Made by a program: the position numbers and the translations under genes. The notes beneath the pieces were generated by a model. The model made no database searches. It was not told the DNA's origin and saw only the letters and a program-made list of their open reading frames with translations. From Eledone cirrhosa (taxonomy: Eukaryota): a stretch of 64,000 bases of DNA. How positions within the stretch are numbered: position 1 is the stretch's first letter; each line of letters opens with the position of its first letter. The DNA is taken from contig OZ024764.1 of NCBI GenBank assembly GCA_964016885.1, positions 17,670,001 to 17,734,000 on the forward strand. The letters run 5' to 3'. Of the stretch, positions 3,967-59,483 are shown piece by piece.

Positions 3967-4186
3967 GTATATATATATATTTCGTTTCTGAATTTGTTTA
4001 GCAAGATTCTTTATCTGAAATCGTGTGTTGAAACCGATATTGTTATACTTTGGGAAGGTCATGTTGCAAATAAGAAACACACGCACCAGTTGCTTTCACT
4101 TCAATTTATTATATATTTATAAATTTACAAATTTATAAATTTCTGGTTGGTTGGTTGGTTCCACAACTAGATAGTTGTTTATATAT

Positions 4187-4231
4187 AGTCATAGTTCTTT
4201 CGTCACACACTCTGTGACCTCTTCAGTGACT
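4187..4231 (-). ncRNA. Minimal type-I hammerhead ribozyme motif (family C, left arm)
   Basis: Reverse complement of 4806-4850. Confidence 0.65.
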
Positions 4232-4805
4232 GGGGATTCCTTTCTTTGTTTCTGTGCCTCTCCTTTGTTCTGTCCTACGCCATTTTGTTTCTGTGTGTGT
4301 GTTGTGTGCTCAGTCTGCGCATGCGCCACATCCGGGTGTCTGTGTGTGTTTATGTTCATTTATCTATTTGTTTATTTACATGTTACTGGTTGGTTGTTTG
4401 TTCTATGTGTGTGTGTGTTTTCATTTTGTCCTTACTTGTAAGTTGTGATGTTGCTGTTCCACTCATATTTTCTATTTAATTTTGGTTGTAATTCTTTTAT
4501 GTTTATTGCCTCTGTAATAAAAGAATTACAACCAAAATAAAAGAATTACAACCAAAATTAAATAGAAAATATGAGTGGAACAGCAACATCACAACTTACA
4601 AGTAAGGACAAAGTGAAAACACACACACACATAGAACAAACAACCAACCAGTAACATGTAAATAAACAAATAGATAAATGAACATAAACACACACAGACA
4701 CCCGGATGTGGCGCATGCGCAGACTGAGCACACAACACACACACAGAAACAAAATGGCGTAGGACAGAACAAAGGAGAGGCACAGAAACAAAGAAAGGAA
4801 TCCCC

Positions 4806-4850
4806 AGTCACTGAAGAGGTCACAGAGTGTGTGACGAAAGAACTATGACT
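4806..4850 (+). ncRNA. Minimal type-I hammerhead ribozyme motif (family C, right arm)
   Basis: AGUCA-CUGAAGA-g-GUCACA(gagug)UGUGAC-GAAA-G(aa)C-UA/UGACU; stem I 5 bp, stem II 6 bp, very short stem III, one extra G before stem II. Confidence 0.65.
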
Positions 4851-5057
4851 ATATATAAACAGCTATCTGGTTGTGCAACCAACCAACCAACCAGAAATTT
4901 ATAAATTTGTAAATTTATAAATATATAATAAATTGAAGTGAAAGCAACTGGTGCGTGTGTTTCTTATTGGCAACATGACCCTCCCACAGTATAACAATAT
5001 ATATATATATATATATGTATATTTATTTATATATATATGTATATTTATTCATATATC

Positions 5058-5337: not shown

Positions 5338-5570
5338 ACCATCCCACTCGCCACCCTCTCCTACCACCAGAAAAGATATAAATACCACCACATTTATTTG
5401 GACAGTCAGATTCCTGATGATTTCTCAAGAATGAAACAGTTCTAGACCTGTAGAATCTCATCTATATTAAAACTATATATATATATATAGTTTTAATATA
5501 GATGAGATTCTACAGGACTAGAACTGTTTCATTCTTTAGAAATTATCAGATGATTTCTAAAGAATGAAAC
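5338..5570 (+). mobile_element. Hammerhead-bearing element family B with inverted partial copy across a (TA)n centre
   Basis: 5408-5472 is mirrored by 5489-5549; homologous to 7362-7566, 47074-47271 and 59333-59483. Confidence 0.75.
5408..5458 (+). ncRNA. Type-I hammerhead ribozyme motif (family B)
   Basis: AGAUUC-CUGAUGA-uUUC(ucaa)GAAu-GAA-ACAG(uucuagac)CUGU-A/GAAUCU; GUA cleavage triplet; stem II is weak with a U-U base pair. Confidence 0.7.
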
Positions 5571-5662
5571 TTTGCCTTTCATCCTTACGGGGTTGATAAA
5601 ATAAAGTACCAGTAATGTACTGGGTAATTGCTGGCCTTGTGCCAAAAGTAGAAACAATTATT
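5569..5662 (+). mobile_element. 3' part of tRNA-derived SINE (Nin/Deu-like central domain)
   Basis: ctttgcctttcatccttacggggttgataaaataaagtaccagt, matching 8581-8764. Confidence 0.7.
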
Positions 5663-6069
5663 ATTAATATTATTATTATTCTCTACATTCCTTACATCAA
5701 ACTAAAATATGTTGACAATCTTTTAATAATGTCTTCCTTGTGAAATTTGTGGTCTTGTTTTGCTTAACTCATGAATATTTCCAGCTCTGCGCACCTAACT
5801 TCCGCATGAACCCAGCCACCTAGCTGCTTTCCACTGCATATTGCACATTGAGCACATGCCTTTACGCTTTGGCTTCTAACTAATTCACCAATCTCTCCTC
5901 TCCTATCTCCATCTCTCTCTTTAAGATTGGTTACTCTTGAACTGGGTATATATTTATATATATATATATATAAAATATTAAAAAAATAATGAATAAAACA
6001 ATGAAATTGTTATTACATTGAGTTCTTCATACGGATTGGACACTACCGTAAACTCTTGGTAGATTTATC

Positions 6070-6381
<312 letters not shown>

Positions 6382-7109: not shown

Positions 7110-7361
7110 ATATTATATATATATATATATATTTATAACGAAAAAAAGATGAAATCGAAAATGCAACTGGAGTCTTATTTTTTTTAAAATATATATATTT
7201 ATTTGGTTCCTTTATCGGTTTCGCAGTTCTTCTGCTTTTCAAAAGTAGAGTTGAGATGGAGGGTCTGTGGTTTTTCTCACATATTTATATATATATATAT
7301 ATAAAGCCTTAAAGAATTAGCTTTTAATGAATTCCCTTTTCTTTCAACCAATGACCTCCAC

Positions 7362-7566
7362 CCATCCCACTCCCCACCCTCTCCTACCACCAGAAAAGAT
7401 ATAAATACCACAACATTTATTTGGACAGTCAGATTCCTGATGATTTTTCAAGAATGAAACAGTTCTAGTCCTGTAGAATCTCATCTATATTAAAACTTTT
7501 ATACTCTGTTTTGTATTGAGTACCTTACTTACTGTGGTTACCTCCGATTCAACCCGGAATAACTTA
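7362..7566 (+). mobile_element. Family B element with hammerhead motif at 7431-7481 and complete 3' tail
   Basis: agattc-ctgatga-...-gaaacag...ctgta-gaatct, then gtattgagtaccttacttactgtggttacctccgattcaacccggaataac and (TA)n. Confidence 0.75.
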
Positions 7567-8357: not shown

Positions 8358-8546
8358 TGTTTCTACTTTAGGCACAAGGCCAGCAATTACTCAGCGCATT
8401 ACTGGTACTTTATTTTATCGACCCCCCGTAAGGATGAAAGGCAAAGTTAACCTCGGCGGGATTTGAACTCAGATCATACAGGGAGGTAACTCTATGCTTC
8501 AAAGCATGGCGCCCAACCCTCTACCGATACGGCCAATTCACCGCCC
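8353..8546 (-). mobile_element. tRNA-derived SINE (Nin/Deu-like domain)
   Basis: Minus strand: gggcggtgaattggccgtatcgg (A-box-like), gagttcaaatcc (B-box), gcctttcatccttacgggg..tcgataaaataaagtaccagt, (ATT)n tail. Confidence 0.8.
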
Positions 8547-8580
8547 ATAACAATATTATTTATACTTATATATGGCATTT

Positions 8581-8764
8581 GGATTGGCAGTATCAGTAGA
8601 GGGTTGGACGCCATGCTTTGAAGCATAGAGTTACCTCCCTGTATGATCTGAGTTCAAATCGCGCCGAGGTTAACTTTGCCTTTCATCCTTACGGGGTCGA
8701 TAAAATAAAGTACCAGTAATGCACTGGTAAATTGCTGGCCTTGTGCCAAAAGTAGAAACAATTA
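8581..8764 (+). mobile_element. tRNA-derived SINE (Nin/Deu-like domain), head-to-head with 8353-8546
   Basis: Near reverse complement of the preceding copy, 34-bp spacer. Confidence 0.8.
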
Positions 8765-8962
8765 TTTATACTTATATATACACTATAAACAACTATAAAC
8801 AGGAAAGGTCAGTAATGTATTACTACCCTATTACCTGTAAGAGAAATAGCTCAATGTAAGAACATCAGGTGTTTTACAGAGCAGGAATATAAATTACACA
8901 ATCAAAGTTATGTTCAAATCATTTTATGGCTGATTTGAACATAACTTTGATTGTGTTGTGTA

Positions 8963-9033: not shown

Positions 9034-9210
9034 AACCAGTAAGACCCCGACAGCTGAGCTCAAGGCGTTTCGACGGCTAATTCAGCCGTCGAAACGGCTT
9101 GAGCTCAGCTGTCGGGGTCTTACTGGTTCCTATTACCCACTCTACTACCTCAAGTATTGAGTACTTTGGTGCGTTATGGTCCACCTGGTTCCTTACCACA
9201 TTTCCTTCGT
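9032..9210 (+). mobile_element. Family A hairpin element (copy 1 of 10)
   Basis: ~100-bp palindrome ggaa...gtttcgacggct/agccgtcgaaac...ttcc plus 80-bp tail ending ttccttcgt; (TA)n both sides. Confidence 0.85.
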
Positions 9211-9397: not shown

Positions 9398-9657
9398 CTA
9401 GCAGATGTACCCGGCGTTGCTCGGGAAATGAATGACAGCCTGAATTGTTCAAGGTCGTTTATGGCTTAGCTAGCAATTTCTGAGTGCATGTCAGCTTATG
9501 TCAGCTAATGGGTTAGCCAATGAGAGCTTGCCTCAATAGCACGTGCCAAATCGGCCTAGTGCTTCAAAAGTTAAAAGGAGCCTAGTATTTGTACACAGAC
9601 AGACAGACAGACAGACACACAGACACACACAGACAGACTTGCTTTTATATATATAGA
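9398..9657 (-). mobile_element. Non-autonomous Helitron
   Basis: Minus strand: A|TCTATATATATAAAAGC start, internal (GTCT)n, subterminal hairpin CCCG-agcaacgc-CGGG, CTAG|T end. Confidence 0.85.
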
Positions 9658-9665
9658 TATTTATT

Positions 9666-9712
9666 TGCTGACAATTGTTTCTTCCAGAGGGATGTCTGGA
9701 TTCATCAGAGCA
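9666..9712 (-). ncRNA. Minimal hammerhead motif (family E, copy 1)
   Basis: UGCU-CUGAUGA-aUCCAGA(cauccc)UCUGGAa-GAA-ACAAUUGU-C/AGCA; palindromic stem III, GUC triplet. Confidence 0.78.
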
Positions 9713-9726
9713 TATATATATATATA

Positions 9727-9770
9727 TGCTGACAATTGTTTCTTCCAGATGGATGTCTGGATTCATCAGA

Positions 9771-9773
<3 letters not shown>
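9727..9773 (-). ncRNA. Minimal hammerhead motif (family E, copy 2)
   Basis: Direct repeat of 9666-9712 at 61-nt period, one loop substitution. Confidence 0.78.
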
Positions 9774-9830
<57 letters not shown>

Positions 9831-14331: not shown

Positions 14332-14520
14332 CATATATATATATATTAGAATTGGTGCTCTGAAATAGCTATATATATATATGTATATATATATGTATAT
14401 ATAGTGTATTTTGCAATACACTGTATGCTTAATTAAAAGCATTTTGAAGACCTTACGCTATTATTTTAGAGTAATGACAGTGTCACTTACTTTAAATTTT
14501 CAGCAAACAGGGGGAGATAA

Positions 14521-14565
14521 AGCTGACAGAGCTCTGTTTCGTACTGATTGGTACTTATCAAAGCC
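14521..14565 (-). ncRNA. Hammerhead motif, U3-A8 core variant (family F, left arm)
   Basis: GGCU-UUGAUAA-GUAC(caauca)GUAC-GAA-ACAGAGCUCUGU-C/AGCU. Confidence 0.8.
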
Positions 14566-14642
14566 AAGTACTCCACCTGATTATTACTAGAATTCTATAA
14601 GAATCAAACATTCATGATTTTCGGCAAACAGGTGGAGTACTT

Positions 14643-14687
14643 GGCTTTGATAAGTACCAATCAGTATGAAACAGAGCTCTGTCAGCT
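14643..14687 (+). ncRNA. Hammerhead motif, U3-A8 core variant (family F, right arm)
   Basis: As the left arm with G-U at the stem II base; distal stem I ttttcggcaaacagg/cctgtttgctgaaaa (14617-14711). Confidence 0.78.
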
Positions 14688-14793
14688 TTATCTCCCCCTG
14701 TTTGCTGAAAATTTAAAGTAAGTGACACTGTCATTACTCTAAAATAATAGCGTAAGGTCTTCAATTTAGCATACAGTGTATTGCAAAATACAC

Positions 14794-16299: not shown

Positions 16300-16489
16300 G
16301 GAACAAGTAAGACCCCGACGGCTGAGCTCAAGCCGTTTCGACGGCTAATTCTGTACTGAATTAGCCGTCGAAACGGCTTGAGCTCAGCCGTCGGGGTCGT
16401 ACTTGTTCCTATTACCCACTCTACTACCCTAAGTATTGAGTACTTTGGTGCGTTATGGTCCACCTGGTTCCTTACCACATTTCCTTCGT
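16300..16489 (+). mobile_element. Family A hairpin element
   Basis: Cleanest copy; ~52-bp arms around loop tgtact; (TA)n flanks. Confidence 0.85.
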
Positions 16490-16532
16490 TATAAATATAT
16501 ATATATATATATATAATATATATATATATATA

Positions 16533-18534: not shown

Positions 18535-21500
18535 AAAACAGCATCGTAAATGACTAAAATGCCTCTAAAATGGCTAAAACTGCCTCATGAAGGACTAAAA
18601 TGGCAAAAACTGCCTCATAAAGGACTAAAATGATTCTAAAATGGCTAAAATGGCATCATAAATGACTGAAACGGCAAACTTAATGAATAAATGCCTCTAA
18701 AATGTGTAAAACGACATCATAAATGACGGAAATGACTCTAAAAGGGCTAAAACCGACCCATAAACGACTAAAATGACTTTAAAACGGCTAAAGCTGCATC
18801 ATAAATGACTAAAATGGCTAAATCCGTATCGTAAATAACTAAAACGACTCTAAATCGGCTAAAACTGCCTCATAAAGAACTAAAATGACTCTACAATGGC
18901 TAAAACGACATCATAAATGACTAAAATGACTCTAAAATGGCTAAAACCGCATTATAAATGACTAAAATGGCTAAATCCGCATCATAAATGACTAAAATGG
19001 CTAAAACCGCATCGTAAATGACTAAAATGACTCATAGATGGCTAAAACAGCATCGTAAATGACTAAAATGACCCTAAAAATGTCTAAAACGTGGTATAAA
19101 TGACTAAAATGACTCTAAAATGGCTAAAACAGAATCATAAATGACTAAATTGACCCTAAAATTGGCTAAAACGGTATATAAATGACGAAAATGACTCTAA
19201 ATGGGCTAAAACCGCCCCATAAAGGACTAAAATGACTCTAAAATGGCTAAAACCGCAACATAAATGACTAAAACGGCATCATAAATGAATAAATCCCTCT
19301 AAAATGGCGAGAACTACATCATAAATGACTATAATGGGTCTTAAATCGCTAAAACAGCATCGTAAATGACTAAAATGACTCTAAAATGGCTAAAACTGCC
19401 TCATAAAGAACTAAAATGACTCTAAAATGGCTAAAACGGCATCATAAATGACTAAACTGACCCTAAAATGTCTAAAACGGTGTAGAAATGACGAAAATGT
19501 CTCTAAAATTGCTTAAACGGCCTCATAAAGACTAAAATGACACTAAAACGGTTAAAACGTCATCATAAATGACTAAAATGACTCTAAAATGGCTGAAACA
19601 GCATTATAAATGACTGAAATGGCTAAAACCGCATCATAAATGACTAAAATGGCTAAAACCGCATCGTAAATGACTAAAATAACTCTTAGATGGCTTAAAC
19701 AGCATTGTAAATGACTAAAATGACCCTAAAATGTCTAAAACTTTGTATAAATGATTAAACTGACTCTAAAATGGCTAAAAAAGCATCATAAATGACTAAA
19801 TTGACCCTAAAAGTGGCTAAAACGGTATATAAATGACGAAAATGACTCTAAATGGGCTAAAACCGCAACATAAATGACTAAAACGGCATCATAAATGAAT
19901 AAATCCCTCTAAAACTGCGAGAACTACATCATAAATGACTATAATGGGTCTTAAATCGCTAAAACAGCATCGTAAATGACTAAAATGCCTCTAAAATAGC
20001 TAAAACTGCCTCATAAAGGACTAAAATGACTTTAAAATGGCTAAAACTGCATTATAAATGACTAAAATGGCTAAAACCGCATCGTAAATGACTAAAATAA
20101 CTCTTAGATGGCTAAAACAGCATTGTAAATGACTAAAATGACCCTAAAATGTCTAAAACTTTGTATAAATGACTAAAATGACTCTAAAATGGCTAAAAAA
20201 GCATCATAAATGACTAAATTGACCCTAAAAGTGGCTAAAACGGTATATAAATGACGAAAATGACTCTAAATGGGCTAAAACCGCAACATAAATGACTAAA
20301 ACGGCATCATAAATGAATAAATCCCTCTAAAATGGCGAGAACTACATCATAAATGACTATAATGGGTCTTAAATCGCTAAAACAGCATCATAAATGACTA
20401 AAATGCCTCTAAAATGGCTAAAACTGCCTCATGAAGGACTAAAATGGCAAAAACTGCCTCATAAAGGACTAAAATGATTCTAAAATGGCTAAAATGGCAT
20501 CATAAATGACTGAAACGGCAAACTAAATGAATAAATGCCTCTAAAATGTCTAAAACGAGATCATAAATGACGCAAATGACTCTAAAAGGGCTAAAACCGC
20601 CCCATTAAGGACTAAAATGACTTTAAAACGGCTAAAACTGCATCATAAATGACTAAAATGGCTAAATCCGCATCGTAAATAACTAAAACGACTCTAAATC
20701 GGCTAGAACTGCCTCATAAAGAACTAAAATGACTCTACAATGGCTAAAACGGCATCATAAATGACTAAAATGACTCTAAAATGGCTAAAACCGCATTATA
20801 AATGACTAAAATGGCTAAAACCACATCGTAAATGACTAAAATGACTCTTAGATGGCTAAAACAGCATCGTAAATGACTAAAATGACCCTAAAATGTCTAA
20901 AACGACATCATAAATGACTAAAATGACTCTAAAATGGCTAAAAAAGCATCATAAATGACTATATTGACCCTAAAAGTGGCTAAAACGGTATATAAATGAC
21001 GAAAATGACTCTAAATGGGCTAAAACCGCAACATAAATGACTAAAACGGCATCATAAATGAATAAATCCCTCAAAAATGGCGAGAACTACATCATAAATG
21101 ACTATAATGGGTCTTAAATCGCTAAAACAGCATCGTAAATGACTAAAATGCCTCTAAAATGGCCAAAATTGTCTCATGAAGGACAGAAATGGCAAAAACT
21201 GCCTCATAAAAGACTAAAATGACTTTAAAATGGCTAAAACTGCATCATAAATGACTAAAATGGCTAAAACCGCATCGTAAATGACTAAAACGACTCTAAA
21301 ATGGCTAAAACTGCCTCATAAATAACTAAAATGACTCTAAAATGGCTAAAACGGCATCATAAATGACTAAACTGCCCCTAAAATGTCTAAAACGGTGTAG
21401 AAATGAGGTAAATGCCTCTACAATTGCTTAAACGGCCTCATAAAGACTCAAATGACACTAAAATGGCTAAAACGGCATCATAAATGACTAAAATGACTCT

Positions 21501-24500
21501 AAAGTGGCTGAAACAGCATTATAAATGACTGAAATGGCTAAAACCGCATCATAAATGACTAAAATGGCTCAAACCGCATCGTAAATGACTAAAATGACTC
21601 TTAGATGGCTAAAACAGCATCGTAAATGACTAAAATGACCCTAAAATGTCTAAAACGGTGTATAAATGACGAAAATGACTCTACATTGGCTAAAACCGCA
21701 TCATTATTGACTTAAATGGCTAAAACGGCGTCGTAAATGAATATAACGACTCTAAAATGGCTAAAACTGCATCATAAAGGACTAAAATGGCTAAAACCGC
21801 ATCATAAATGACTAAAATGGCTAAAACCGCATCGTAAATGGCTAAAATGACTCTTAGATGGCTAAAACCGCATCGTAAATGACTAAAATGACCCTAAAAT
21901 GTCTAAAACGGTGTACAAATGAGGAAATTGCCTCTACAATTGCTTAAACGGCCTCATAAAGACTAAAATGACACTAAAATGGCTAAAACGGCATCATAAA
22001 TGACTAAAATGACTCTAAAATGGCTGAAACAGCATTATAAATGACTGAAATGGCTAAAACCGCATCATAAATGACTAAAATGGCTAAAACCGCATTGTAA
22101 ATGACTAAAATGACTCTTAGATGGCTAAAACAGCATCGTAAATGACTAAAATGACCCTAAAACGTCTAAAACTGTGTACAAATGACTAAAATGAGTCTAA
22201 AATGGCTAGAACAGCATCATAAATGACTAAAATGAGCCTAAAAGTGGCTAAAACGGTATATAAATTATGAAAATTACTCTACAATGGATAAAACGGCATC
22301 AGAAATGACTAAAATGATTCTTATACGGATAAAACTGCCTCATAAATGACTGAAACGGCAAAATAAATGAATAAATGCCTCTAAAATGTCTAAAACGACA
22401 TCATAAATGACGAAAATGACTCTAAAATTGCTAAAGCCGCCCCATAAAGGACTAAAAAGACTCTAAAACTGCTAAAACCGCATCATAAATGACTAAAATG
22501 GCTAAAACCGCATCGTAAATGACTAAAATGACTCTTAGATGACTAAAACGGCATCGTAAATGACTAAACTGACCCTAAAATGGGTAAAAGAGCATCATAA
22601 ATGACTAAAATGACCCTCACAGTGGCTAAAACGGTATATAAATGATGAAAATTACTCGAGAATGGATAAAACGGCATCAGAAATGACTAAAATGATTCTT
22701 ATAGGGCTAAAACAGCATCGTAAATGTGTAAAATGAGCCTGAAATGACTAAAACGGTGTATAAATGACGAAAATGACTCTACATTGGCTAAAACCGCATC
22801 ATAATTGACTAAAATGGCTAAAACGGCGTCGTAAATGAATATAACGATTCTAAAATGGCTAAAACTGCCTCATAAAGGACTAAAAAGACTTTCAAATGGC
22901 TATAACGGCATCATAAATGACTGAAACGGCAAAATAAATTAATACATTCCTCTAAAATGTCTAATACGACATCATGAATAACGAAAATGATTCTAAAAGG
23001 GCTAAAACCGCCCCATAAAGGACTAAAATGACTCTAAAATAGCTAAAACCGTTTCATAAATGACTAAAATGGCTAAAACCGCGTCATGAATGACTAAAAT
23101 GACTAAAACAGCATTGTTAATGATTAAAACGACTCTAAGATGGCTAAAACTGCCTCATAAAGGACTAAAATGACTCTTAAATGGCTAAAACAGCATTATA
23201 AATGGCTAAAATGACCCTGAAAATTGCCAAAACGGTATATAAATGAGGGAAATGTCTTTAAAATGGATAAAACGGCATCAGAAATGACTAAAATGCCTCT
23301 TAGGTCGATAAAACCGCATCATAAATGACTAAAATGGCTAAAACCGCATCTTAAATGACTAAAGTGACTCTAAAAGGGCTAAAACCGCATCATAAAGGAC
23401 TAAAATGGCTTAAACAGCATCGAAAGTGACTAAAATGACTTTAAAATGGCTAAAACCGCATCATAAATCACTAAAACGGCAAAATAAATGAATAAATGCG
23501 TTTAAAATGCTTAAAACGACATCATAAATGACTAAAACAACTCTAAAATGTAGAAAATTGCCTTATAAAGAACTAAAATGACCCTTAAGATGTCTAAAAC
23601 GGTTATAAATGACGAAAATGACCCTAAAATTGCTAAATTGGCCTCATAAAGGACTAACATTACTCTAAAATGGCTAAAACGGCATCATAAATCACTAAAA
23701 TGACTCTACATTGGCTAAAACCGCATCATACATCACTAAAATAGCTAAAACCGCTTCGTAAATGGATATAACGACTCTAAAATGGCTAAAACTGCCTCAT
23801 AAAGGACGAAAATGACTTCAAAATGGCTAAAACGACATCATAAATGACGAAAATGATTCTAAAAGGGGCTAAAACCGCGCCATAAAGGACTAAATTGACT
23901 CTAAAATAGCTAAAACCGTTTCATAAATGAGTAAAATGGCTAAAACCGCGTCATGGATGACTAAAATGGCTAAAACCGCATTGTAAATTACTAAAACGTC
24001 TCTAAAATGGCTAAAGCTGCCTCATAAAGGACTAAAGTGACTCTAAAATTAATAAAACGGCCTTATCAAAAACTAAAATGACACTAAAATGGCTAAAACA
24101 GAATCATAAATGACTAAAATGACCCTGAAAATGGCTAAAACGGTATATAAATGAGGGAAATAACTCTAAAATGGATAAAACGGCATCAGAAATGACTAAA
24201 ATAACTCTTAGATGGATAAAACCGCATCATAAATAACTAAAACAGCATCAGAAATGAATAAATGCCTCTAAAATGGTTAGAACTACATCATAAATGACTA
24301 TAATGGGTCTTAACTCGCTAATACAGCATCGTAAATGACTAAAATGCCTCTAAAATGGCGCAAAGAGCATCATCAATGAATAAAATGACTCTAAAATGGC
24401 TAAAACGGCATCAAAAGTAACTAAAATGACACTGAAAGGGCTAAAACCGCATCATAAATATCTAAAACTGCAAAATAAATGAATAAGTGCCTCTAAAATG

Positions 24501-27500
24501 CCTAAAACACATCATAAATGACAGAAACAACTCTAAAATAGCTAAAACCGCATCGTAAATGGCTAAACTGACTCTAAAATGGCTAAAACTGCTTCATAAA
24601 GGACTAAAATAACCCTGAAAATGTCTAAAACGGTGTATAAATGACGAAAATGACTCTAAAATTGCTAAAACGGCCTCATAAAGGACTAAAATGACACTAA
24701 AATAGCTAAAACGGCATCTTAAATGACTAAAATGACTCCAAAATGGCTAAAGCCGCATTATAAATGACTAAAATGGCTAAAACCGCATCATGAATGGCTA
24801 AAATGGCTAAAACCGCATCGTAAATGACTAAAACGACTCTAAAATGGCTAAAACTGGCTCATAAAGGACTAAAATGACTCTAAAATGGCTAAAACGACAT
24901 CAGAAATGACTAAAATGACTCTTAGATGGCTAAAACAGCATCGTAAGTGACTGAAATGACCCTAAAATATCTAAAACGGTGTATAAATGACTGAAATGAC
25001 TCTAAAAGGGCTAAACCCGCCCCAGAAAGGACTGAAATGACTCTAAAATAGCTAAAACCGTTTCATAAATGACTAAAATGGCTAAAACCGCACCATTAAT
25101 AACTAAAATGGCTAAAACGGAATCATAAACGACTAAACTGACACTAAAATGGCTAAAACAGCATCATAAATGACTAAAGTGACCCTAAAAATGGCTAAAA
25201 CGGTATATAAATGAGGAAAATGGGTCTAAAATGTATAAAACGGTATTAGTCATGACTAAAATGACTCGTAGATGGATAAAGCCGCATCATGAATGACTAA
25301 AATGGCTAAAACCGCATCTTCAATGACTAAAGTGCCTCTAAAGTGGCTAAAGCCGCATCGTAATTGGCTAAAATGACTCGAAAATGGCTAAAACCGTCTC
25401 ATAAATGACTGAAATGTCGCTAAAATGCCTAAAACAGCATTATAAATGACTAAAATGACCCTGAAAATGGCTAAAACCGTATATAAATGAGGGAAATGTC
25501 TCTAAAATGGATAAAAGGGCATCAGAAATGACTAAAATGCCTCTTAGATCGATAAAACCGCATCATAGATGACTAAAATGGCTAAAACCGCATCTTAAAT
25601 GACTAAAGTGACTCTAAAAAAGCTAAAACCGCATCATAAAGGACTAAAATGGCTTAAAAAGCATCAAAAATGACTAAAATGACTTTAAAATGGCTAAAAC
25701 CGCATCATAAATGACTAAAACGGCAAAATAAATGAATAAATGCGTTTAAAATGCTTAAAACGACATCATAAATGACTAAAACAACTCTAAAATAGCGAAA
25801 ACTGCCTCATAAAGAACTAAAATAACCCTTAAGATGTCTAAAACGGTTATAAATGACGAAAATGACCCAAAGATTGCTAAACCGGCCTCATAAAGGACTA
25901 ACATTACTCTAAAATGGCTAAAACGGCATTATAAATGACTAAAATGACTCTACATTGACTAAAACCGCATCATACATCACTAAAATAGCTAAAACCGCGT
26001 CGTAAATGGATATAACGACTCTAAAATGGCTAAAACTGCCTCATAAAGGACGAAAATGATTCAAAATGGCTAAAACGACATCATAAATGACGAAAATGAT
26101 TCTAAAAGGGCTAAAACCGCGCCATAAAGGACTAAAATGACTCTAAAATAGCTAAAACCGTTTCATAAATGAGTAAAATGGCTAAAACCGCGTCATGAAT
26201 GACTAAAATGGCTAAAACCGCATTGTAAATTACTAAAACGTCTCTAAAATGGCTAAAGCTGCCTCATAAAGGACTAAAATGACTCTAAAATTGCTAAAAC
26301 GGCCTTATCAAAAACTAAAATGACTCTAAAATGGCTAAAACAGAATCATAAATGACTAAAATGACCCTGAAAATGGCTAAAACGGTATATAAATGAGGGA
26401 AATGACTCTAAAATAGATAAAACGGCATCAGAAATGACTAAAATGGCTAAAACCGCATTGTAAATTACTAAAACGACTCTAAAATGGCTAAAACTGCCTC
26501 ATAAAGGACTAAAATGACTCTAAAATTGCTAAAACGGCCTTATAAAAAACTAAAATGACTCTAACGTGGCTAAAACAGAATCATAAATGACTAAAATGAA
26601 CCTGAAAATGGCTAAAACGGTATATAAATGAGGGAAATGACTCTAAAATAGATACAACGGCATCAGAAATGACTAAAATCGCATAATAAATGAATAAATC
26701 CCTCTAAAATGGTTAAAACTACGTCATAAATGACTATAATGGGTCTTCACTCGCTAAAACAACATCGTAAATGACTAAAATGCCTCTAAAATGGCGCAAA
26801 GGGCATCATCAATGAATAAAATGACTCTAAAATGGCTAAAACCGTCTCATTAAGGACTAAAATGACTCTAAAATGGCTAAAACGGCATCAAAAATAACTA
26901 AAATGACTCTGAAAGGGCTAAAACCGGATCATAAATGTCGAAAACTGCAAAATAAATGAATAAGTGCCTCTAAAATGCCTAAAACACATCATAAATGACT
27001 AAAACAACTCTTCAATGGCTAAAACCGCATTGTAAATGGCTAAAATGACTCTAAAATGGCTAAAACCGCCTCATAAAGGACTAAAATGACACTAAAATGG
27101 CTAAAACGGCATCTAAAATAACTAAGATGACTCCAAAATGGCTAAAACCGCATCATAAATGACTAAAATGGCTAAAACCGCATCATGAATGACTAAAATG
27201 GCTAAAACCGCATCGTAAATGACTAAAACGACTCTAAAATGGCTAAAACTGCCTCATAAAGGACTAAAATGACTTTAAAATGGCTAAAACGGCATCATAA
27301 ATAACTAAAATGACTCTTAGATGGCTAAAACAGCATCGTAAATGACTGAAATGACCCTAAAATGTCTAAAACGGTGTATAAATGACTAAAATGACTCTAA
27401 AAGGGCTAAACCCGCCCCATAAGGGACTAAAATGACTCTAAAATAGCTAAAACCGTTTCATAAATGACTAAAATGGCTAAAACCGCATCATTAATAACTA

Positions 27501-29703
27501 AAATGGCTAAAACAGAATCATAAGCGACTAAACTGACACTAAAATGGCTAAAACGGTATATAAATGAGGAAAATGGTTCTAAGATGTATAAAACGGCATT
27601 AGTCATGACTAAAATGACTCTAAAATTGCTAAAACCGCATCAGAAATGACTAAAATGACTCTTAGATGGCTAAAACAGCATCGTAAATGACTGAAATGAC
27701 CCTAAAATATCTAAAACGGTGTATAAATGACTAAAATGACTCTAAAAGGGCTAAACCCGCCCCATAAAGGACTAAAATGACTCTAAATTAGCTAAAACCG
27801 TTTCATAAATGACTAAAATGGCTAAAACCGCATCATTAATAACTAAAATGGCTAAAACGGAATCATAAACGACTAAACTGACACTAAAATCGCTAAAACA
27901 GCATCATAAATGACTAAAGTGACCCTAAAAATGGCTAAAACGGTATATAAAGGAGGAAAATGGGTCTAAGATGTATAAAACGGCATTAGTCATGACTAAA
28001 ATGACTCTTAGATGGATAAAACCGCATCATGAATGACTAAAATGGATAAAACCGCATCTTCAATGACTAAAGTGCCTCTAAAATGGCTAAAGCCGCATCG
28101 TAATTGGCTAAAATGACTCGAAAATGGCTAAAACCGTCTCATAAATAACTGAAATATCGCTAAAATGCCTATAACAGCATTATAAATGGCAAAAATGACC
28201 CTAAAAATGGCAAAAACTGTATATAAATAATGAAAATTACTCTAAAATGGATAAAAGGGCATCAGAAATGACTAGAATGACCCTCAGATGGCTAAAACAG
28301 CATTGTAAATGACTAAAATGGCTAAAACCTCATCTTAAATGACTAAAGTAACTCTAAAATGGCTAAAACCGCATAAAAAATGACTAAAATGACTCTAAAA
28401 TTGGTAAAACCGCATCATAAATGACTAAAACGGCATCATAATTGAATAAATACCTCTAAAATGGCTAGAACTACATCATAAATGACTATAATAGATCTTA
28501 AATTGCTAAAACAGCATAATGAATGATTATAATGACACTAAAATGGTTTAAACGATATATAAATTACGAAAATGACACTAAAATGGCTTAAACGGCACCA
28601 TAAATAGCTAAAATGGGTGTTAAATTCCTAAATGACCCTAAAAATGGCTAAAACGGTATATAATAGATGAAAATGACTCTAAAATTGATGAAACGGCATC
28701 AGAAATGACTGAAAAGACTCTTAGATGGCTAAAACTGCATCATAATTGACTAAAATGGCTAAAACCGAATCGTAAATGGCTAAATAAACTCTAAAATAGC
28801 TAAAACGGCTCATAAATTACTAAAATTACTCTAAAATGGCTAAAACCGCATCGTAAATGACTAAAATGACCCTAAAATGTCTAAAACGGTGTATAAATGA
28901 CGAAAATGACTCTAAAATGGCTAAAACGCCTCATAAAGGCCTGAAATGATTCTAAAATGGCTAAAACGGCATCATGAATGACTAAAATGACTTTATAATG
29001 GCTAAAACGGCCTCATAAATAACGAAAGTGACTCTAAAATGGCTAAAACGGCCTCAAAAATAACTAAAATTTCTCTAAAAGGGCTAACACGACATTATAA
29101 ATGACTAAAATGGGACTCAAATGGCTAAAACAGCATCATGAATGACTAAAATGACTCTTAATTGGCTAAAAGGCATAGCAAATGACTAAAATGACCCTAA
29201 AATGGCTAAAACAGCATATAAATGACGAAAATGACGCTAAAATGGATAAAACAGCATCAGAAATGACTAAAGTGACTATAAAATGGCTAAAACCGCATCA
29301 TAAAGGACTAAAATGAGTCTAAAATGGCTGTAAAATGGCTAAAATCGCATCATAAATGAAGAAAATGACTCTATAATGGCTAAAACGGCATCATAAATGA
29401 CTAAAATGACACTTAAATGGCTAAAACTGCACCATAAAGGACTAAAATGATTAAAGCCGCATTGTAAATGACTAATATGACTCTAAAATTGCTATAACGG
29501 CATCATAAATGACTAAAATGACTCTAAAATGCTTAAAACGGCATCATTAGTAGCTAAAACGCCATCATAAATGACTAAAACGGCAACATAAATGATTCAA
29601 TGCCTCTAAAATAGCTCAAACGCCATCATAAATGATTAAAATGACTGTAAAATGGCTAAAACCGCATCATAAATGAATAAAATGACTCTAAAATGGCTAA
29701 AAC
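18535..29703 (+). repeat. Satellite I: 41-bp monomer (aaatgactaaaatgactctaaaatggctaaaaccgcatcat) with 30-bp variant
   Basis: 11-kb tandem array of ~10-11-bp A-tract subunits with irregular larger block duplications. Confidence 0.95.
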
Positions 29704-32700
29704 TGTATTAAATATTGCATATATACTACTATAGAAGCCATTTTTGTATAAAATATGTCATTCTTTCTACTAATATTCCTCATATTAATGAGTTTTTGTG
29801 TGGTAGAAGCCATTTCTGAATTAAATATTGCATATACACTACTATTTCCATCGAATTAATGAGTTCGGTTCATTTAGAAGCCATTTCCGTATTAAATATG
29901 TCATATAATCTACTAATACCTTTACAATTAAACAATTTCAGTCCTGTAGAAGCCACTCCTCTATTAAATATTGCATATATACTACTATTTGAATCGAATT
30001 AATGAGTTCTAGTCCCTCAGAAGCCATTTCTGTATTAAATACGGCATATACACTATTATTCGATTTGAATGAAGAGTTCTAGTCCTTTAGAAGCCATTTC
30101 TGTATTAAATATCTCATTTAATCTACTAATACCCCTCAAATGATTGAGTTTTTGACTTGCAGAAGCGATTTCTGGATTAAATATTGCATGTATACTACTA
30201 TTTGATGCGAATTAATGATTTCTTGTCCTTCAGAAGCCATTTCTGTATTAAATATGGTATATAATCTAATATTACGCCATTTCTGTATTATATATTGCAT
30301 ATAAACTACTATTCGATTCGAATTAAAGAATTCTAGTCATTTAGAAGCCATTTGTGTACTAAATATGCCATTTAATCTACTAATACCACTCATATTAATG
30401 TAGAAGCCATTTCTGTATTAAATATTGCATATACACTACTATTTTCATTGAGTTAAAGAGTTGCAGTCCTTTAGAAGTCATTTCTGTATTAAATAAAGCA
30501 TTTAATCGACTAATACCCTTCACATTAATGGGTTTGGTTGATGTAGAAGCCATTTCTCTATTAAATATTGCATATACACTACTACTTCCATCGATGTACA
30601 GGGTTTACTTCATTTAGAAGCCATTTCTGTATGAAATATTTCATATATACTACTATTTGAATCGAATTAAAGAGTTTTTGTCGTTTAGAAGCCATTTCTG
30701 TATTAAATATCTCATTTAATCTACTAATACCCCTCAAATGAATGAGTTTTTGACTTGTAGAATCCATTTCTGTACTAAATATTGCATATATACTACTATT
30801 TCCATCGAATTAAAGATATCTCTTCATTCAAAAGCAATTTCTGTATTAAATATGGTATATAATCTACTAATACCACTCATATTGATGAGTTTTAGTGTGG
30901 TAGAAAACATTTCTGAATTAAATATTGCATATACACTACTATTTCCATCGAATTAAAGAGTTCTCTTCATTTAGAAGCCATTTCTGTATTAAATATTGCA
31001 TATACACTACTATTTCCATCAAATTAAAGAGTTCTCTTCATTTAGAAGCCATTTCTGTATTAAATATTGTATATACACTACAATTCAATTCGAAATAAAG
31101 AGTTCTAGTCTTTTAGAAGCCATTTCTGTATTAAATATGGCATTTAATCTACTAATACTCCTCATATAAATGAGTTTTAGTCTTGTAGAAGCCATTTCAA
31201 TATTAAATATGGCATATATACTACTAATACCCCTCATATTAATGACTTTTAGTCTTGTAGAAGCCATTTCTGTAATAAATATTGCATATATACTACTATT
31301 CGATTTGAATTAAAGAGTTCTAGTCCTGTAGAAGCCATTTCTGTATTAAATATGGCATATACACCACTATTTCCATCGAATTAAACAGGTGTCTTTATTT
31401 AGAAGCCATTTCCATATTAAATATGACATATATAATACTAATACCCCTCATATTAATGAGTTTTAGTCTTCTAGAAGCCATTTCCATATTAAATATTGCA
31501 TATATACTATTATTTGATGCGAATTAAAGATATCTCTTCATTCAGAAGCCATTTCTGTATTAAATATGGCATATAATCTACTAATACCCCTCATGTTAAT
31601 GAGTTTTAATCCTATAGAAGACATTTCTGTATTAAATATTGCATATACACTACTATTCAATTCGAATTAAATAGTTCTAGTCCTTTAGAAGCCATTTCTG
31701 TATTAAATATGGCATTTAATCTACTAATACCACTCACATTAATGAGTTTTTGACTTGTAGAAGCCATTTCCGTACTAAATATTGCATATACACTACTATT
31801 TCCATCGAATTAAAGAGTTCTCTTCATTTAGAAGCCATTTCTGTATTAAATATTGCATATACACTACTATTTCCATCGAATTAAAGAGTTCTCTTCATTT
31901 AGAAGCCATTTCTGTATTAAATATTGTATATACACTACAATTCAATTCGAAATAAAGAGTTCTAGTCTTTTAGAAGCCATTTCTGTATTAAATATGGCAT
32001 TTAATCTACTAATACTCCTCATATAAATGAGTTTTAGTCTTGTAGAAGCCATTTCAATATTAAATATGGCATATATACTACTAATACCCCTCATATTAAT
32101 GACTTTTAGTCTTGTAGAAGCCATTTCTGTAATAAATATTGCATATATACTACTATTCGATTTGAATTAAAGAGTTCTAGTCCTGTAGAAGCCATTTCTG
32201 TATTAAATATGGCATATACACCACTATTTCCATCGAATTAAACAGGTGTCTTTATTTAGAAGCCATTTCCATATTAAATATGACATATATAATACTAATA
32301 ACCCTCATATTAATGAGTTTTAGTCTTCTAGAAGCCATTTCCATATTAAATATTGCATATATACTATTATTTGATGCGAATTAAAGATATCTCTTCATTC
32401 AGAAGCCATTTCTGTATTAAATATGGCATATAATCTACTAATACCCCTCATGTTAATGAGTTTTAATCCTATAGAAGACATTTCTGTATTAAATATTGCA
32501 TATACACTACTATTCAATTCGAATTAAATAGTTCTAGTCCTTTAGAAGCCATTTCTGTATTAAATATGGCATTTAATCTACTAATACCACTCACATTAAT
32601 GAGTTTTTGACTTGTAGAAGCCATTTCCGTACTAAATATTGCATATACACTGCTATTTCCATCGATTCAAAAAGTTCCCTTCATTTAGAAAACATTTCTG

Positions 32701-33760
32701 TATTAAATATTGCATATAGACTACTAATACCCCTCATATTAATGAATTTCAGTCCAGTAGAAGCCATTTCTGTATAAAATATTGCATATACACTACTATT
32801 TCATTTGAATTAAAGAGCTCAAGTCCTTTAGAAGCCATTTATGTATTAAATATACCATTTAATCTACTACTACCCCTCAAATGAATGAGTTTTTGACTTG
32901 TAGAAGCCATTTCTGTATTAAATATTGCATATATACTACTATTAGATGCAAATTAATGATTTGTTGAACTTCAGAAGCCATCTCTGTACTAAATATCGCA
33001 TATAATCTACTAATACCCCTCATATTAATGAGTTTTATTACTTTTGAAGCCATTTCTGTATTAAATATTGCATATACGCTACTATTCGATTCAAATTAAA
33101 GAGTTCTAATCCTTTAGAAGCCATTGCGGTATTAAATATGGGATATAATCTATTAACACCCCTCATATTAATGAGTTTTTCTGTGGTAGACACCATTTCT
33201 GAATTAAATATTGCATATATACTACTATTTCCATCGAATTAAAGAGTTCTCTTCATTTAGAAACCATTTTCGTATTAAATATGGCATATAATCTACTAAT
33301 ATCCCTCATATTAATGAGGTTTTGTCTTGTAGAAGCCATTTCTGTATTAAATATTGCATATATACTACTATTCGATTCGAATTAAAGAGTTCTAGTCCTT
33401 TAGAAGCCATTTTCTGTATTATATATGGCTTTTAATCTACTAATACCCCTCAAATTAAAGAGATTTTCAGTTGTAGAAGCCATTTCTGTATTAATTATTG
33501 CATATACTATTTCCTTCGAATGAAAGAATTCTAGTTTATTATAAGCCATTTCTGTATTAAATATGGTATATATACTACTAATACCCCTCAAATAAATGAG
33601 ATTTTGTCTTGTAGAAGCCACTTCTTTATTAAATATTGTATATACTACTATTTGATGCGAATTAAAGAGTTCTAGTCTTTTAGAGGCTATTTCTGTATTA
33701 AATATGGCATTTAATCTACTAATACCCCTCAAATTAATGAGTTTTGACATGTAGAAGCCT
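29704..33760 (+). repeat. Satellite II: 71-72-bp monomer, two interspersed subtypes
   Basis: agaagccattt recurs at 30973, 31044, 31115 and 31187; an 857-bp block is tandemly duplicated. Confidence 0.95.
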
Positions 33761-33767
33761 AAACCAT

Positions 33768-34360
33768 TAGAACTCTTTAATTCGTTGGAAATAGTAGTGT
33801 ATCTCCAATATTTAATACAGAAATGGCTTCTAGAAGGTAAAACTCTTTAATATGAGGGGTTTTAGTAGAGTATATGCAATATTTAACATAGAAATGGATT
33901 CTAAATGCAGTAAACTCTTTAATTCCCATCAAATAGTAGTGTATATGCAATATTTTATACAGAAATGGCTTCTACAAGACTAAAACTTTTTAATATGAGG
34001 GGTATTGGTAGATTATTCTCAATATTTAATACAGAAAGGACTGGAACTCTTTAATTTGATGGTAAACTAAAACTCATTAATATGAGTGGTATTAGTACAT
34101 TATACGAATGAAATAGTAGATTATATGCCATTCTTAATACGGAAATGGCTTCTAAATGAAGAGAACTCTTTAATTCGAAGGAAATAGTAGTGTATATGCT
34201 ATATTTAATAGGGAAATGTCTTCTAATAGACCAGACCTCTTTAATTCACAGCAAATAGTAATGTATATTCTATATTTAATTCAGAAATTGTAGTTTATAT
34301 GCAATATTTAATAGAGAAATATTTTCTAAAGAACTCGAACTCTTTATTTCGAAGGAAATA
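33768..34360 (-). repeat. Satellite II, inverted and more degenerate block
   Basis: tttaatacagaaatggcttcta is the reverse complement of the monomer. Confidence 0.9.
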
Positions 34361-34369
34361 ATAAGATAA

Positions 34370-35098
34370 TAATTATGAAATTATTGTGTACAGTGTTCAT
34401 GTGCACTACAACTCATCAAAGTTGCATGTATAGTATATAAAGTAATGTTCAAATGCCAGGAAAGTGAACAGTGTATGAGTCATGATATATATGTGTGTGT
34501 GTATGGAGGAGAATATCAGGTGTAGTATGGGCGAATCTCAGGAAGTATGGAGGTTTTAAAGGATGCAGTGTCTCGACAGCTAACAACTGATGCAGGGAGT
34601 TTGTTCCATGGAGGTTTTAAAGGATGCAGTGTCTCGACAGCTAACAACTGATGCAGGTAGTTTGTTCCATGGAGGTTTTAAAGGATGCAGTGTCTCGACA
34701 GCTAACAACTGATGCAGGTAGTTTGTTCCATGGAGGTTTTAAAGGATGCAGTGTCTCGACAGCTAACAACTGATGCAGGTAGTTTGTTCCATGGAGGTTT
34801 TAAAGGATGCTGTGTCTCGACAGCTAACAACTGATGCAGGTAGTTTGTTCCATGGAGGTTTTAAAGGATGCAGTGTCCCGACAGCTAACAACTGATGCAG
34901 GTAGTTTGTTCAATGCTTCAGCAACTCTGAGTGTGAAGAAATGTTTCTGAAATTGATGGGAGCTGTGCTGTTTTCTGACTTTGTAGGCATGTCCACATAT
35001 GTTAGACACATGGAATTAAAAAAGGTGCTCAGGGTTGTTGTTGGCAAGATGGTTAATAATCTTGTGGGTGTCTACCAAGTTAGTTGCTAGACGTCAGA
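34370..35098 (-). mobile_element. CR1-group LINE 3' end
   Basis: RRLATNLVDTHKII...GHAYKVRK...HFFTLRVAEALNKLPASVVSC..SFK matches the CR1 C-terminal pattern GH.YKL...FFS.RV...WN.LP..VV. Confidence 0.85.
34547..34911. repeat. 61-bp minisatellite, 6 copies, inside the CR1 fragment
   Basis: Units start at 34547, 34608, 34669, 34730, 34791 and 34852. Confidence 0.95.
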
Positions 35099-35138: not shown

Positions 35139-35557
35139 GTGTATAATGGTAGCTATGGTGCTTCCATAGGCGGTATGCCAAAATTAGCACTCAATATTCA
35201 TACAGAGTAGAGTGCGGATAGTATAAAAAAACGAAAAATCCGTGATGCATCTGGACTCAGTTTATTGCGTGTTACAATTGTTTCGCCGGCAGGTAGCTCG
35301 AGACATGATCAATGTATTGATCTGGCTAATTCTACGGCTGCAGGTTCCTTCGGATGCAGGTAGTTCGTTCGGAGAAAATTATCTCACAGTGAGAAAATTT
35401 TCTCCGAACGAACTACCCGCGTCCGAAGGAACCTGCAGCCGTAGAATTAGCCAGATCAATACATTGATCATGTCTCGAGCTACCTGCCGGCGAAACAATT
35501 GTAACACGCAATAAACTGAGTCCAGATGCATCACGGATTTTTCGTTTTTTTATACTA
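35136..35557 (-). mobile_element. Fold-back element: ~335-bp near-perfect palindrome (centre 35388) plus 85-bp tail
   Basis: 35220-35387 mirrors 35389-35557; each arm has cggcGAAACAATTGTA (3' half of a hammerhead); (TA)n flanks. Confidence 0.75.
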
Positions 35558-44062: not shown

Positions 44063-44134
44063 CCACAGTAAGTAAGGTACTCAATACATTAGTAGAGTGT
44101 ATATAACAAATTTAATATAGAAATGGCTTCTACA
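44063..44134 (-). mobile_element. Family B2 fragment
   Basis: Minus strand gtagaagccatttctatattaaatttgttatatacactctactaatgtattgagtaccttacttactgtgg. Confidence 0.7.
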
Positions 44135-44144
44135 TATATATATA

Positions 44145-44332
44145 GGAAAAATTATGACCCCGACGGCAGAGCTCAAGCCGTTTCGACGATATATAGTCCA
44201 GAAATAGCCGTCGAAACGGCTTGAGCTCTGCCGTCGGGGTCATACTTTTTCCTATTACCCACTCTACTACGCTAAGTATTGAGTACTCTAGTGCGTTATG
44301 GTCCATCTGGTTCCTTACCACATTTCCTTCGT
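44145..44332 (+). mobile_element. Family A hairpin element
   Basis: Homology and hairpin. Confidence 0.85.
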
Positions 44333-45589: not shown

Positions 45590-45708
45590 TTTATCCCGGG
45601 TTCAATCGGAGGTAACCACAGTAAGGTACTCAATACATAGCAGAGTATAAATATTTAATATAGAAATGGCTTCTACAGGACTAGAACTGTTTCATTCGGC
45701 TTCCTGAT
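45590..45708 (-). mobile_element. Family B2 element; hammerhead 3' half on minus joined to an inverted 5' half (ggcttcctgat)
   Basis: Minus strand gaatgaaacagttctagtcctgtagaagcc...; plus strand 45698-45708 GGCTTC-CTGAT. Confidence 0.7.
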
Positions 45709-47052: not shown

Positions 47053-47073
47053 ATTTATATATATATATATATA

Positions 47074-47270
47074 TTTTAATATAGATGAGATTCTACAGGA
47101 CTAGAACTGTTTCATTCATTAGAAATCATCCGGAATCTGATTCCTGATGATTTCTAATGAATGAAACAGTTCTAGTCCTGTAGAATCTCATCTATATTAA
47201 AACTTTTATACTCTGCTATGTATTGAGTACCTTACTTACTGTGGTTACCTCCGATTCAACCCGGAATAAC

Positions 47271-48897: not shown

Positions 48898-49088
48898 GGA
48901 GAAGGTATGACCCCGACGGCAGAGCTCAAGCCGTTTCGACGGCTATTTCTGTCCAGAAATAGCCGTCGAAACGGCTTGAGCTCTGCCGTCGGGGGTCATA
49001 CTTGTTCCTATTACCCACTCTACTACCCTAAGTATTGAGTACTCTGGTGGGTTATGGTCCACCTGGTTCCTTACCACAACTCCTTCGT
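48898..49088 (+). mobile_element. Family A hairpin element
   Basis: Homology and hairpin. Confidence 0.85.
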
Positions 49089-49639
49089 TATATATATATG
49101 TATATATATATATAAACATACATACACACTCACATATAATATATATATATATATATATATACATATATACATATATATCTCCTATTCAAGGAATCCCCCC
49201 ACCCCCCCTCAGTTAAACAATTATGCTCTCAAATCAACTTCACTTTAAATATTTGCACGGCTATATATATATTGAGTGCTACCTTCCGTAGATGCATTAG
49301 TCATTATATACACCGCACACACACGATATATATATATATGTGTGTGTCTGTGAGTGTATATATATGTGTGTGTATGTATGTGTGTGTGTGTGTATGTATG
49401 TGTGTATGTATGTATGTATGTATGTATGTATGTATGTATGTATGTATGTATGTATGTATGTATGTATGTATGTATGTATGTTCCATTTCGAGCGGGAATC
49501 CCCAGACTACGAAAAGCCCCAAACAACACATTTTGTTGCAGTTGTTGTTGTTGTTATTGGGCCTCCGTCACTTACGACGAAGTATGTTCTAGTTGCTTGA
49601 TCAACAGATATACAACTTAACTCTTTTTTGTATAATAAA

Positions 49640-58710: not shown

Positions 58711-59198
58711 GAAAAGAGTCAGGACCCCGGCCGTTTCGACAGCTAGATCCGAACAGCTCGGATCTAGCTGTCGAAACGGCCGGAGCTCAGCCGTCGGGGT
58801 CCTGACTCATTTCCTTATTACCCACTCTCCTACCCTAAGTATTGAGTACTCTGGTGTCTTATGGTCCACCTGGTTCCTTACCACACTTTGTTATATATAT
58901 ATATATATTTATATATATTGTGAAATCGGGATTTAAAAAAAAGTGCCGGTAAACAGATAATAGTGGTGAATGTATGTGTGTGTATGTGTGTGTATACACA
59001 TACACACACAAACACACACACACATATATATATATATGTGTGTGTGTTACAAAGGAAGTGTGGTCAGGAACCAGGTGGACCATAACGCACCAGAGTACTC
59101 AATACTTAGGGTAGTAGAGTGGGTAATAGGTTCGGAACATTTCGGATCTAGCTGTTGAAACGGCCGGAGCTCAGCCGGCGGGGTCCTGACTCTTTTCC
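58710..59198. mobile_element. Two family A copies tail-to-tail: 58710-58891 (+) and 59049-59198 (-), each with a deletion in one hairpin arm
   Basis: Homology to 42012-42195. Confidence 0.8.
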
Positions 59199-59332
59199 TA
59201 TACATATACATATCTATATCTATCTATCTATCTATATATATATATGTATATAAATATGTGTGTATATATATATATATATGTGTGTGTGCGCGCGCGTCTG
59301 TGTGCGTGTGTGACTGTATATATATATATATA

Positions 59333-59483
59333 GTTTTAATATAGATGAGATTCTACAGGACTAGAACTGTTTCATTCTTTAGGGAATCCTGTAGAATCTC
59401 ATCTATATTAAAACTTTTATACTCTGCAATGTATTGAGTACCTTACTTACTGTGGTTACCTCCGATTCAACCCGGAATAACGT
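59333..59483 (+). mobile_element. Family B element, 5'-truncated with inverted 5' segment
   Basis: gttttaatatagatgagattctacagg mirrored by cctgtagaatctcatctatattaaaac; full 3' tail. Confidence 0.8.

Follow-up and report, generated by a model that had tools for sequence, protein, structure and literature searches.

The window, as the whole analysed stretch of 64,000 nucleotides from Eledone cirrhosa is called here, contains a tandem array of a 71/72-bp satellite. About 56 monomers of derived type make up the main array (29704..33759, plus strand), which continues into an inverted and more degraded one (33760..34360, minus strand). The anchored intervals in the array (n=55) measure 71 bp in 27 cases and 72 bp in 22, and monomers of these two lengths mostly alternate, producing a period of 143 bp. 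A block of 857 bp (12 monomers) is duplicated nearly perfectly within the array (30919..32651, plus strand), and at an offset of 857 the sequence is identical over runs of 102, 422 and 350 bases. On the left the array adjoins a satellite of a 41-bp family (18535..29703, plus strand), 11 kb long and containing subunits of 9-11 and 30 bp. This unrelated, non-homologous neighbour was rejected as kin of the 71-bp unit, as 301-992 of 1000 shuffles gave equally good alignments.

Head-to-tail arrays of the 71-bp satellite occur at several loci. The 34 stretches sampled, which lie on 11 large contigs and 3 small ones, contain 1398 monomers (1139 distinct), the arrays of contig C18 being duplicated blocks. 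A 24-mer of derived type, which marks 15% of the sampled monomers, has 1352 matches genome-wide. This suggests a total of some 8,000 monomers, equivalent to 0.6 Mb, a rough figure because some of the matches are mutated copies of the dispersed element described below.

This element carries a hammerhead motif and is present in 2841 exact matches to its core, stem III and GAAGCC across the genome. Its copies are 5'-truncated, often accompanied by an inverted partner, often tail-less, and sited in (TA)n. Four subfamilies, B1-B4, can be split by their tails. In copy samples biased by the searches, divergence from the majority was 1.9% for B1 (25 copies), 5.2% for B2 (40 copies), 4.6% for B3 (49 copies) and 9.7% for B4 (9 copies, measured on 4 of equal length), besides 5 others. 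Within the window, B1 is represented by two plus-strand copies with intact hammerheads, one at 7300..7565 (type I hammerhead at approximately 7428-7485, with GATTC/GAATC as its stem I) and the other, with a 5' inverted partner, at 47062..47267; by an inverted pair of tail-less copies flanking a (TA)n tract (5405..5549); and by a truncated copy with an inverted partner (59325..59478). A B2 copy on the minus strand (45593..45698) is 5'-truncated in stem II and retains the full 3' tail; beside it lies a short inverted piece with the 5' strand of stem I and the core. Another minus-strand copy, of B4 type, is truncated at the cleavage triplet (44064..44134).

In 74 intact copies, motifs follow in the order stem I, CUGAUGA, U, stem II, U, GAAAC, stem III, GUA, stem I. 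These copies possess the features of a type I hammerhead, i.e. CUGANGA, GAAA, NUH, stems I-III and covariation. Stem II has 3 bp, kept in 72, 72 and 66 of the copies, and a tetraloop that is free to vary; the loop of stem III is centred on CUAG. The base of stem II is U.U in place of the conserved G10.1-C11.1 pair. The strands of stem I are GATTC/GAATC in B1 copies and GGCTT(T)C/GAAGCC in those of B2 and B3, swapped strands remain unpaired, and two double changes in this stem were found among the tabulated copies. Stems I and III form in the minimum-energy fold of the 51-nt motif. Three longer windows folded around the hammerhead were no better than shuffles (z-scores near zero), and an Rfam scan of the window gave no hammerhead family among 150 of 445 rows, with miRNA matches driven by microsatellites. 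The hammerhead of the element is a real structured motif that is predicted to self-cleave.

The entire 71-bp monomer is colinear, without a gap, with 71 nt of this element, and is thereby homologous to a defined part of it: stem II, GAAAC, stem III, GUA, the 3' strand of stem I and 33 nt of tail, in this order. The unit begins just 3' of CUGAUGA and ends with ...CTCTACTA. In a natural B3 copy, L084, the 71 nt from CTGATGA to TGTATTGAG are colinear with the monomer. An example of the unit in element register (31299..31369, plus strand) contains a stem II remnant, TAAAG replacing GAAAC, stem III, GTA (31328-31330), GAAGCC and the tail; it is one of the 3 among 61 window monomers in which CTGTAGAAGCC is retained.

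A preliminary description of this DNA proposed that the satellite derives from the cleavage-site region of the hammerhead element, based on an alignment with minus-strand segments 45652-45697 and 44088-44133. Both copies are indeed present there, and the match through GAAA, stem III, GUA and stem I stands; it was said to cover most of the monomer, and in fact spans all of it, stem II included. The 63-nt monomer string quoted at the time is a composite that does not exist letter for letter, its first 45 nt being found at 31307 and 32164. Both copies had been assigned to B2; they are of B2 and B4 type, and neither is closest to the satellite.

Local alignment of monomer majorities scored 68 and 61 with segment 45652-45697 and 50 and 56 with segment 44088-44133. 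In none of these four tests did any of 2000 dinucleotide shuffles reach the observed score (shuffle mean 15-17, maximum 30-33), so the alignment is significant against shuffled controls. Window monomers share on average 55.7 of 71 positions with the B3 unit (range 44-61), and up to 68 positions are shared elsewhere. Satellite and element both have about 28% GC, and AT-rich DNA might be suspected of producing such likeness by chance. The probability of this explanation is practically negligible given the shuffle results and a best-rotation null for 71-nt identity with a mean of 30.9 and a maximum of 38 in 3000 trials.

B3, a sister of B2 found outside the window, is supported as the probable closest source. 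It is the best-scoring subfamily for 61/61 window monomers and 141/142 monomers of old type. Compared with 1105 anchored monomers, copy L084 has identities of 46-68 of 71 positions, 68/71 being the best. The derivation from the hammerhead region of a dispersed element is supported and more finely resolved, with B3 instead of the B2 copies nearby as the closest source. Relatives of the source are dispersed in the neighbourhood of the array, as previously noted, but their nearness is meaningless because relatives occur genome-wide.

A pattern combining the satellite junction with intact GAAAC matched 6 places, four of them within one C22 array, and led to old-type arrays on other contigs. Column majorities of these arrays approach the B3 unit closely: 70/71 in the array at C24:3.77 Mb (27 monomers), 69/71 at C22:20.69 Mb (18 monomers), and 68, 66, 66 and 65 of 71 in the other four. 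The corresponding values are 63/71 for the window array and 59/71 for the C1576 array. Old and derived layers abut sharply inside the arrays C24:8.90 Mb, C24:8.93 Mb, C9:0.21 Mb and C1569, and a five-site ancestral score changes from old to derived in abrupt steps within single arrays. Of the satellite fragments seen, the closest to B3, identical at 56 of 57 positions, is an inverted edge monomer (L120 and L121 joined, 9590-9646; G000:C24:8.9346 Mb).

As to the direction of descent, we consider it highly probable that the element gave rise to the satellite: 71 consecutive B3 bases would have become the unit by one head-to-tail duplication, followed by ordinary satellite spread. Element-first origin is favoured because the ends of the unit cut two element motifs in half. 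The start lies between CUGAUGA and stem II, thus cutting the hammerhead, and the 3' end splits ACTCTACTA...GTATTGAGTAC, a motif common to the distant hammerhead family A, where it occupies the same place after the cleavage site; family A is otherwise without likeness to the satellite. Furthermore, among 30 B3 copies selected by their tail, 7 have their break at -4 to 0 relative to the unit start and 23 have it at -15 to +5, two of the breakpoints outside this interval being small-indel artefacts. The opposite course, in which the element captured a pre-existing satellite monomer and built its hammerhead from it, can draw on divergence. On the same 54 columns, divergence from the unit is about 6% in B3 copies, a sample biased towards young ones by its selection with an exact 26-mer, but 18% in old and 22% in window monomers. 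The daughter looks older than the parent, with roughly three times more divergence, and this counts against the element-first order, which would require either that arrays change faster or that a B3 master has been long-lived. Changes in arrays include relatively more transversions and changes from A/T than those in B3 copies. An unrooted tree (77 rows, 72 columns) fails to resolve the groups, with old monomers in a B2/B3/B4 polytomy, and its midpoint root falls among window monomers, as capture would have it. Nevertheless, capture would imply that half of a hammerhead and half of a tail motif shared with family A were both completed by luck; B1, B2 and B4 carry the same stretch with indels of their own, and old arrays converge on functional sequence. 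Capture is for these reasons very unlikely.

The founder junction was sought directly: junction plus tail has 0 exact matches in the genome, and none of the 1398 monomers runs into the element tail, with a single, spurious match to the head. Under element-first descent, the first dimer may be traced to the AT that both unit boundaries share (GAT|TTCC and CTAT|GTAT), since a single jump guided by this microhomology would yield it. A 2-bp AT in AT-rich DNA is a weak point that counts against this step. A jump made by a Penelope-type reverse transcriptase in the common zone of 5' truncation is slightly favoured over DNA slippage; the element would itself be mobilised by a Penelope-like partner and its hammerhead would cleave. 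Later growth would have proceeded by unequal exchange and segmental duplication. Growth and spread look DNA-based because of the block duplication, the dimer period, the shared flanks, the 41-bp neighbour and the scarcity of (TA)n flanks. Among the matches listed, flanks are common to C18 and C25 arrays, and arrays are generally bordered by other satellites and shared duplicated blocks, rarely by (TA)n. In 15 of 34 stretches, a 41-bp-family satellite of either orientation lies at most 1.5 kb from the array. The arrays of C18 and C25:26.0 Mb, segmental duplicates, have a third short-period satellite (GCCACCTAGGGTACAGACCTCAGAGAGACACAG-like) in their flanks (loci L124, L125, L126, L135, L136, L181, L184 and L185).

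That the satellite is not an intact ribozyme was recognised from the start, and the counts agree. CTGATGA is absent from all 55 anchored window monomers, and the place of GAAA is mostly taken by TAAA or TAAT (TAAAG in 24, TAATG in 18 and GAAAC in 0 of 61 window monomers). In the wider sample, CTGATGA was found in 0 of 647 anchored monomers, and upstream of the 1398 sampled monomers it was not seen apart from one spurious match. GAAAC is kept by 22/1398 monomers, so with CUGAUGA missing and GAAAC mostly lost, the satellite is predicted to be catalytically dead.

It had also been speculated that satellite transcripts serve as substrates in trans. The sequence needed for this is present in a small minority of monomers and bears no sign of upkeep, and the suggestion is not supported. 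A broader version would have the satellite kept because its RNA pairs with that of the element, either serving as a substrate for cleavage in trans or acting as a decoy that spoils hammerhead dimers. Penelope hammerheads are thought to act as dimers (PMC4209133), loop III of the element, whose CUAG core is palindromic, is predicted to form a self-duplex of -12.8 kcal/mol, and the CTGTAGAAGCC site survives in 158/1398 monomers, the whole stretch from loop III to stem I in 8, and GAAACAG together with the site in 7. However, the site occurs in only 3/61 window monomers, none of which has GAAAC or the combination of both, and the element carries both halves in cis. Across the distinct monomers (1139), retention is 42% for the G of GUA and 13% for the two G/C of GAAAC, compared with 68-85% for other G/C. 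Taken together, these data make a pairing role highly unlikely. The G/C of the core are retained least of all positions, but selection cannot be inferred from this, because only two sites are concerned and they were fixed in founders of layers. Core variants are GAGAC/AAGAC in old layers and TAAAG/TAATG in young ones. A reading in which the satellite was written by a Penelope-type reverse transcriptase in a hot zone of truncation, had its core knocked out twice independently because monomers able to dimerise with element RNA did harm, and now persists as a decoy or small-RNA source appears distinctly improbable; if true, the arrays would act in this way against their own parent family.

The element was previously described as a PLE-type terminus. 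Its architecture agrees with this: 5' truncation, an inverted 5' partner, an optional tail, a microsatellite target and a 3' hammerhead. No reading frame could be tied to the family, and 'Penelope-type' is for that reason an architectural designation. The sequence preceding 20 B1 copies and 30 long B2 copies gave no frame with reverse transcriptase and GIY-YIG domains among the matches listed, tblastn included, and the longest copies begin at a TG-rich leader. Two candidate partners were rejected. A GIY-YIG/RT element lying beside B1 copy L069 possesses a separate 3' end of its own, and a GIY-YIG family preceding B2 at two loci is followed by B2 in only 1 of 30 copies, the query itself, so that both associations represent nested insertions in (TA)n.

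Resemblance to known systems is partial. Hammerheads occur in pseudo-LTRs of Penelope-like elements (PMC4209133; PMC8557442), and the element resembles these, as described there, in its type I hammerhead near the 3' end, palindromic loop III, a short tail that one copy often lacks, heavy truncation at the 5' end, 5' partners in inverted orientation and insertion into (TA)n. Unlike them, it has a stem II of only 3 bp and no RT/GIY-YIG frame was found attached, which makes it either non-autonomous or a surviving 3' end. Known hammerhead satellites are reported to be retrozymes with whole motifs (PMC7229834; PMC8490949; bioRxiv 10.64898/2026.07.22.740005), and early matches between Penelope parts and satellites have been noted (bioRxiv 10.64898/2026.07.22.740005). 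The present satellite shares with non-LTR retrozymes, such as newt satellite 2 and the schistosome and cave-cricket satellites as far as these are described, the nature of a hammerhead-related tandem repeat tracing to Penelope-like termini. Retrozymes contain a complete type I hammerhead per unit, self-cleave and circularise (PMC7229834; bioRxiv 10.64898/2026.07.22.740005), whereas a complete hammerhead is found in no unit of this satellite, which lacked CUGAUGA and the 5' strand of stem I from birth and then lost GAAAC.

The array could still be pictured as a retrozyme in decay, the remains of a tandem hammerhead repeat that was once active and was copied via circular RNA. Tandem relatives of Penelope termini have been described (bioRxiv 10.64898/2026.07.22.740005; PMC7229834), and many arrays contain both orientations (12 of the 38 blocks listed). 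However, CUGAUGA and the 5' strand of stem I were never part of the unit, even in the oldest arrays; the unit junction lies 39 nt past the cleavage site and not at it; retrozyme units reportedly measure 200-400 nt; and the satellite-rich flanks described above, rarely (TA)n among the matches listed, do not fit. This explanation is largely refuted and extremely improbable.

Transposon-derived satellites, Penelope included, have been reviewed (PMC12692304), and HviSat02-2707 of Harttia, with a 2.7-kb monomer, is reported to be related to Penelope (PMC11955569). As in the cases covered by these sources, a piece of a mobile element was tandemised and then underwent satellite evolution, with higher-order periods and divergent edge layers. 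Unlike other such satellites, ours is a 71-bp half ribozyme whose parent subfamily and boundaries are resolved to the base and whose intermediate layers survive. Among the papers listed by full-text searches of the open literature, no report of a satellite made of a hammerhead fragment or of this 71-bp repeat was found. Among known transposon-derived satellites, this half-ribozyme case is resolved unusually well. A single assembly rarely shows how a satellite was born together with its parent, boundaries and intermediate stages. Here the parent subfamily can be read, as can both cut points and the succession of old and young layers, so that the origin can be dated by comparing species and the apparently threefold faster change in arrays becomes testable. 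Hammerhead-bearing Penelope-type ends would seed dead satellites besides active retrozymes, and such half-motif satellites would be missed by ribozyme screens, which demand the whole motif.

Several other repeats were encountered. An element with reverse transcriptase and GIY-YIG domains, Penelope-like, 5'-truncated and frameshifted, with a Cys-rich linker and a short inverted 5' piece, lies as an insertion within the (TA)n tail belonging to a B1 copy (L217:5700-8300; G000:C2:309.506 Mb) and has a relative at L184:8867. A young GIY-YIG Penelope-like family (L251, about 800-2830, minus strand, and L252-L281) shows 96-100% identity, a 1.5-kb 3' UTR and CCGAAGA...GAAACAATTGTA as a minimal hammerhead, and includes inverted pairs as well as partial tandems; related 61-bp tandem copies lie at 9651-9788 of the window. 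Family A is abundant, with window sites at 9040-9210, 16330-16500, 44150-44330, 48930-49100 and 58740-58910 and many loci besides. It has a hammerhead 3' half GAAAC-GG...CC-GTC-GGGGTC in fold-back form and shares the ACTCTACTA/GTATTGAGTAC tail motif with family B; the search pattern caught no intact 5' half. The window begins with tandem arrays rich in GTGTA/TACAC (1-3533), a large inverted pair meeting at about 1730-1770. Six near-identical 61-bp repeats containing CTGATGCAGG are found at 34547-34915, and a related sequence with a long hairpin at 35280-35500. Long fold-back insertions of other repeat families, typical of the genome, occur at 3980-5000, 5540-5960, 6100-6200, 8360-8790 and 14495-14713.
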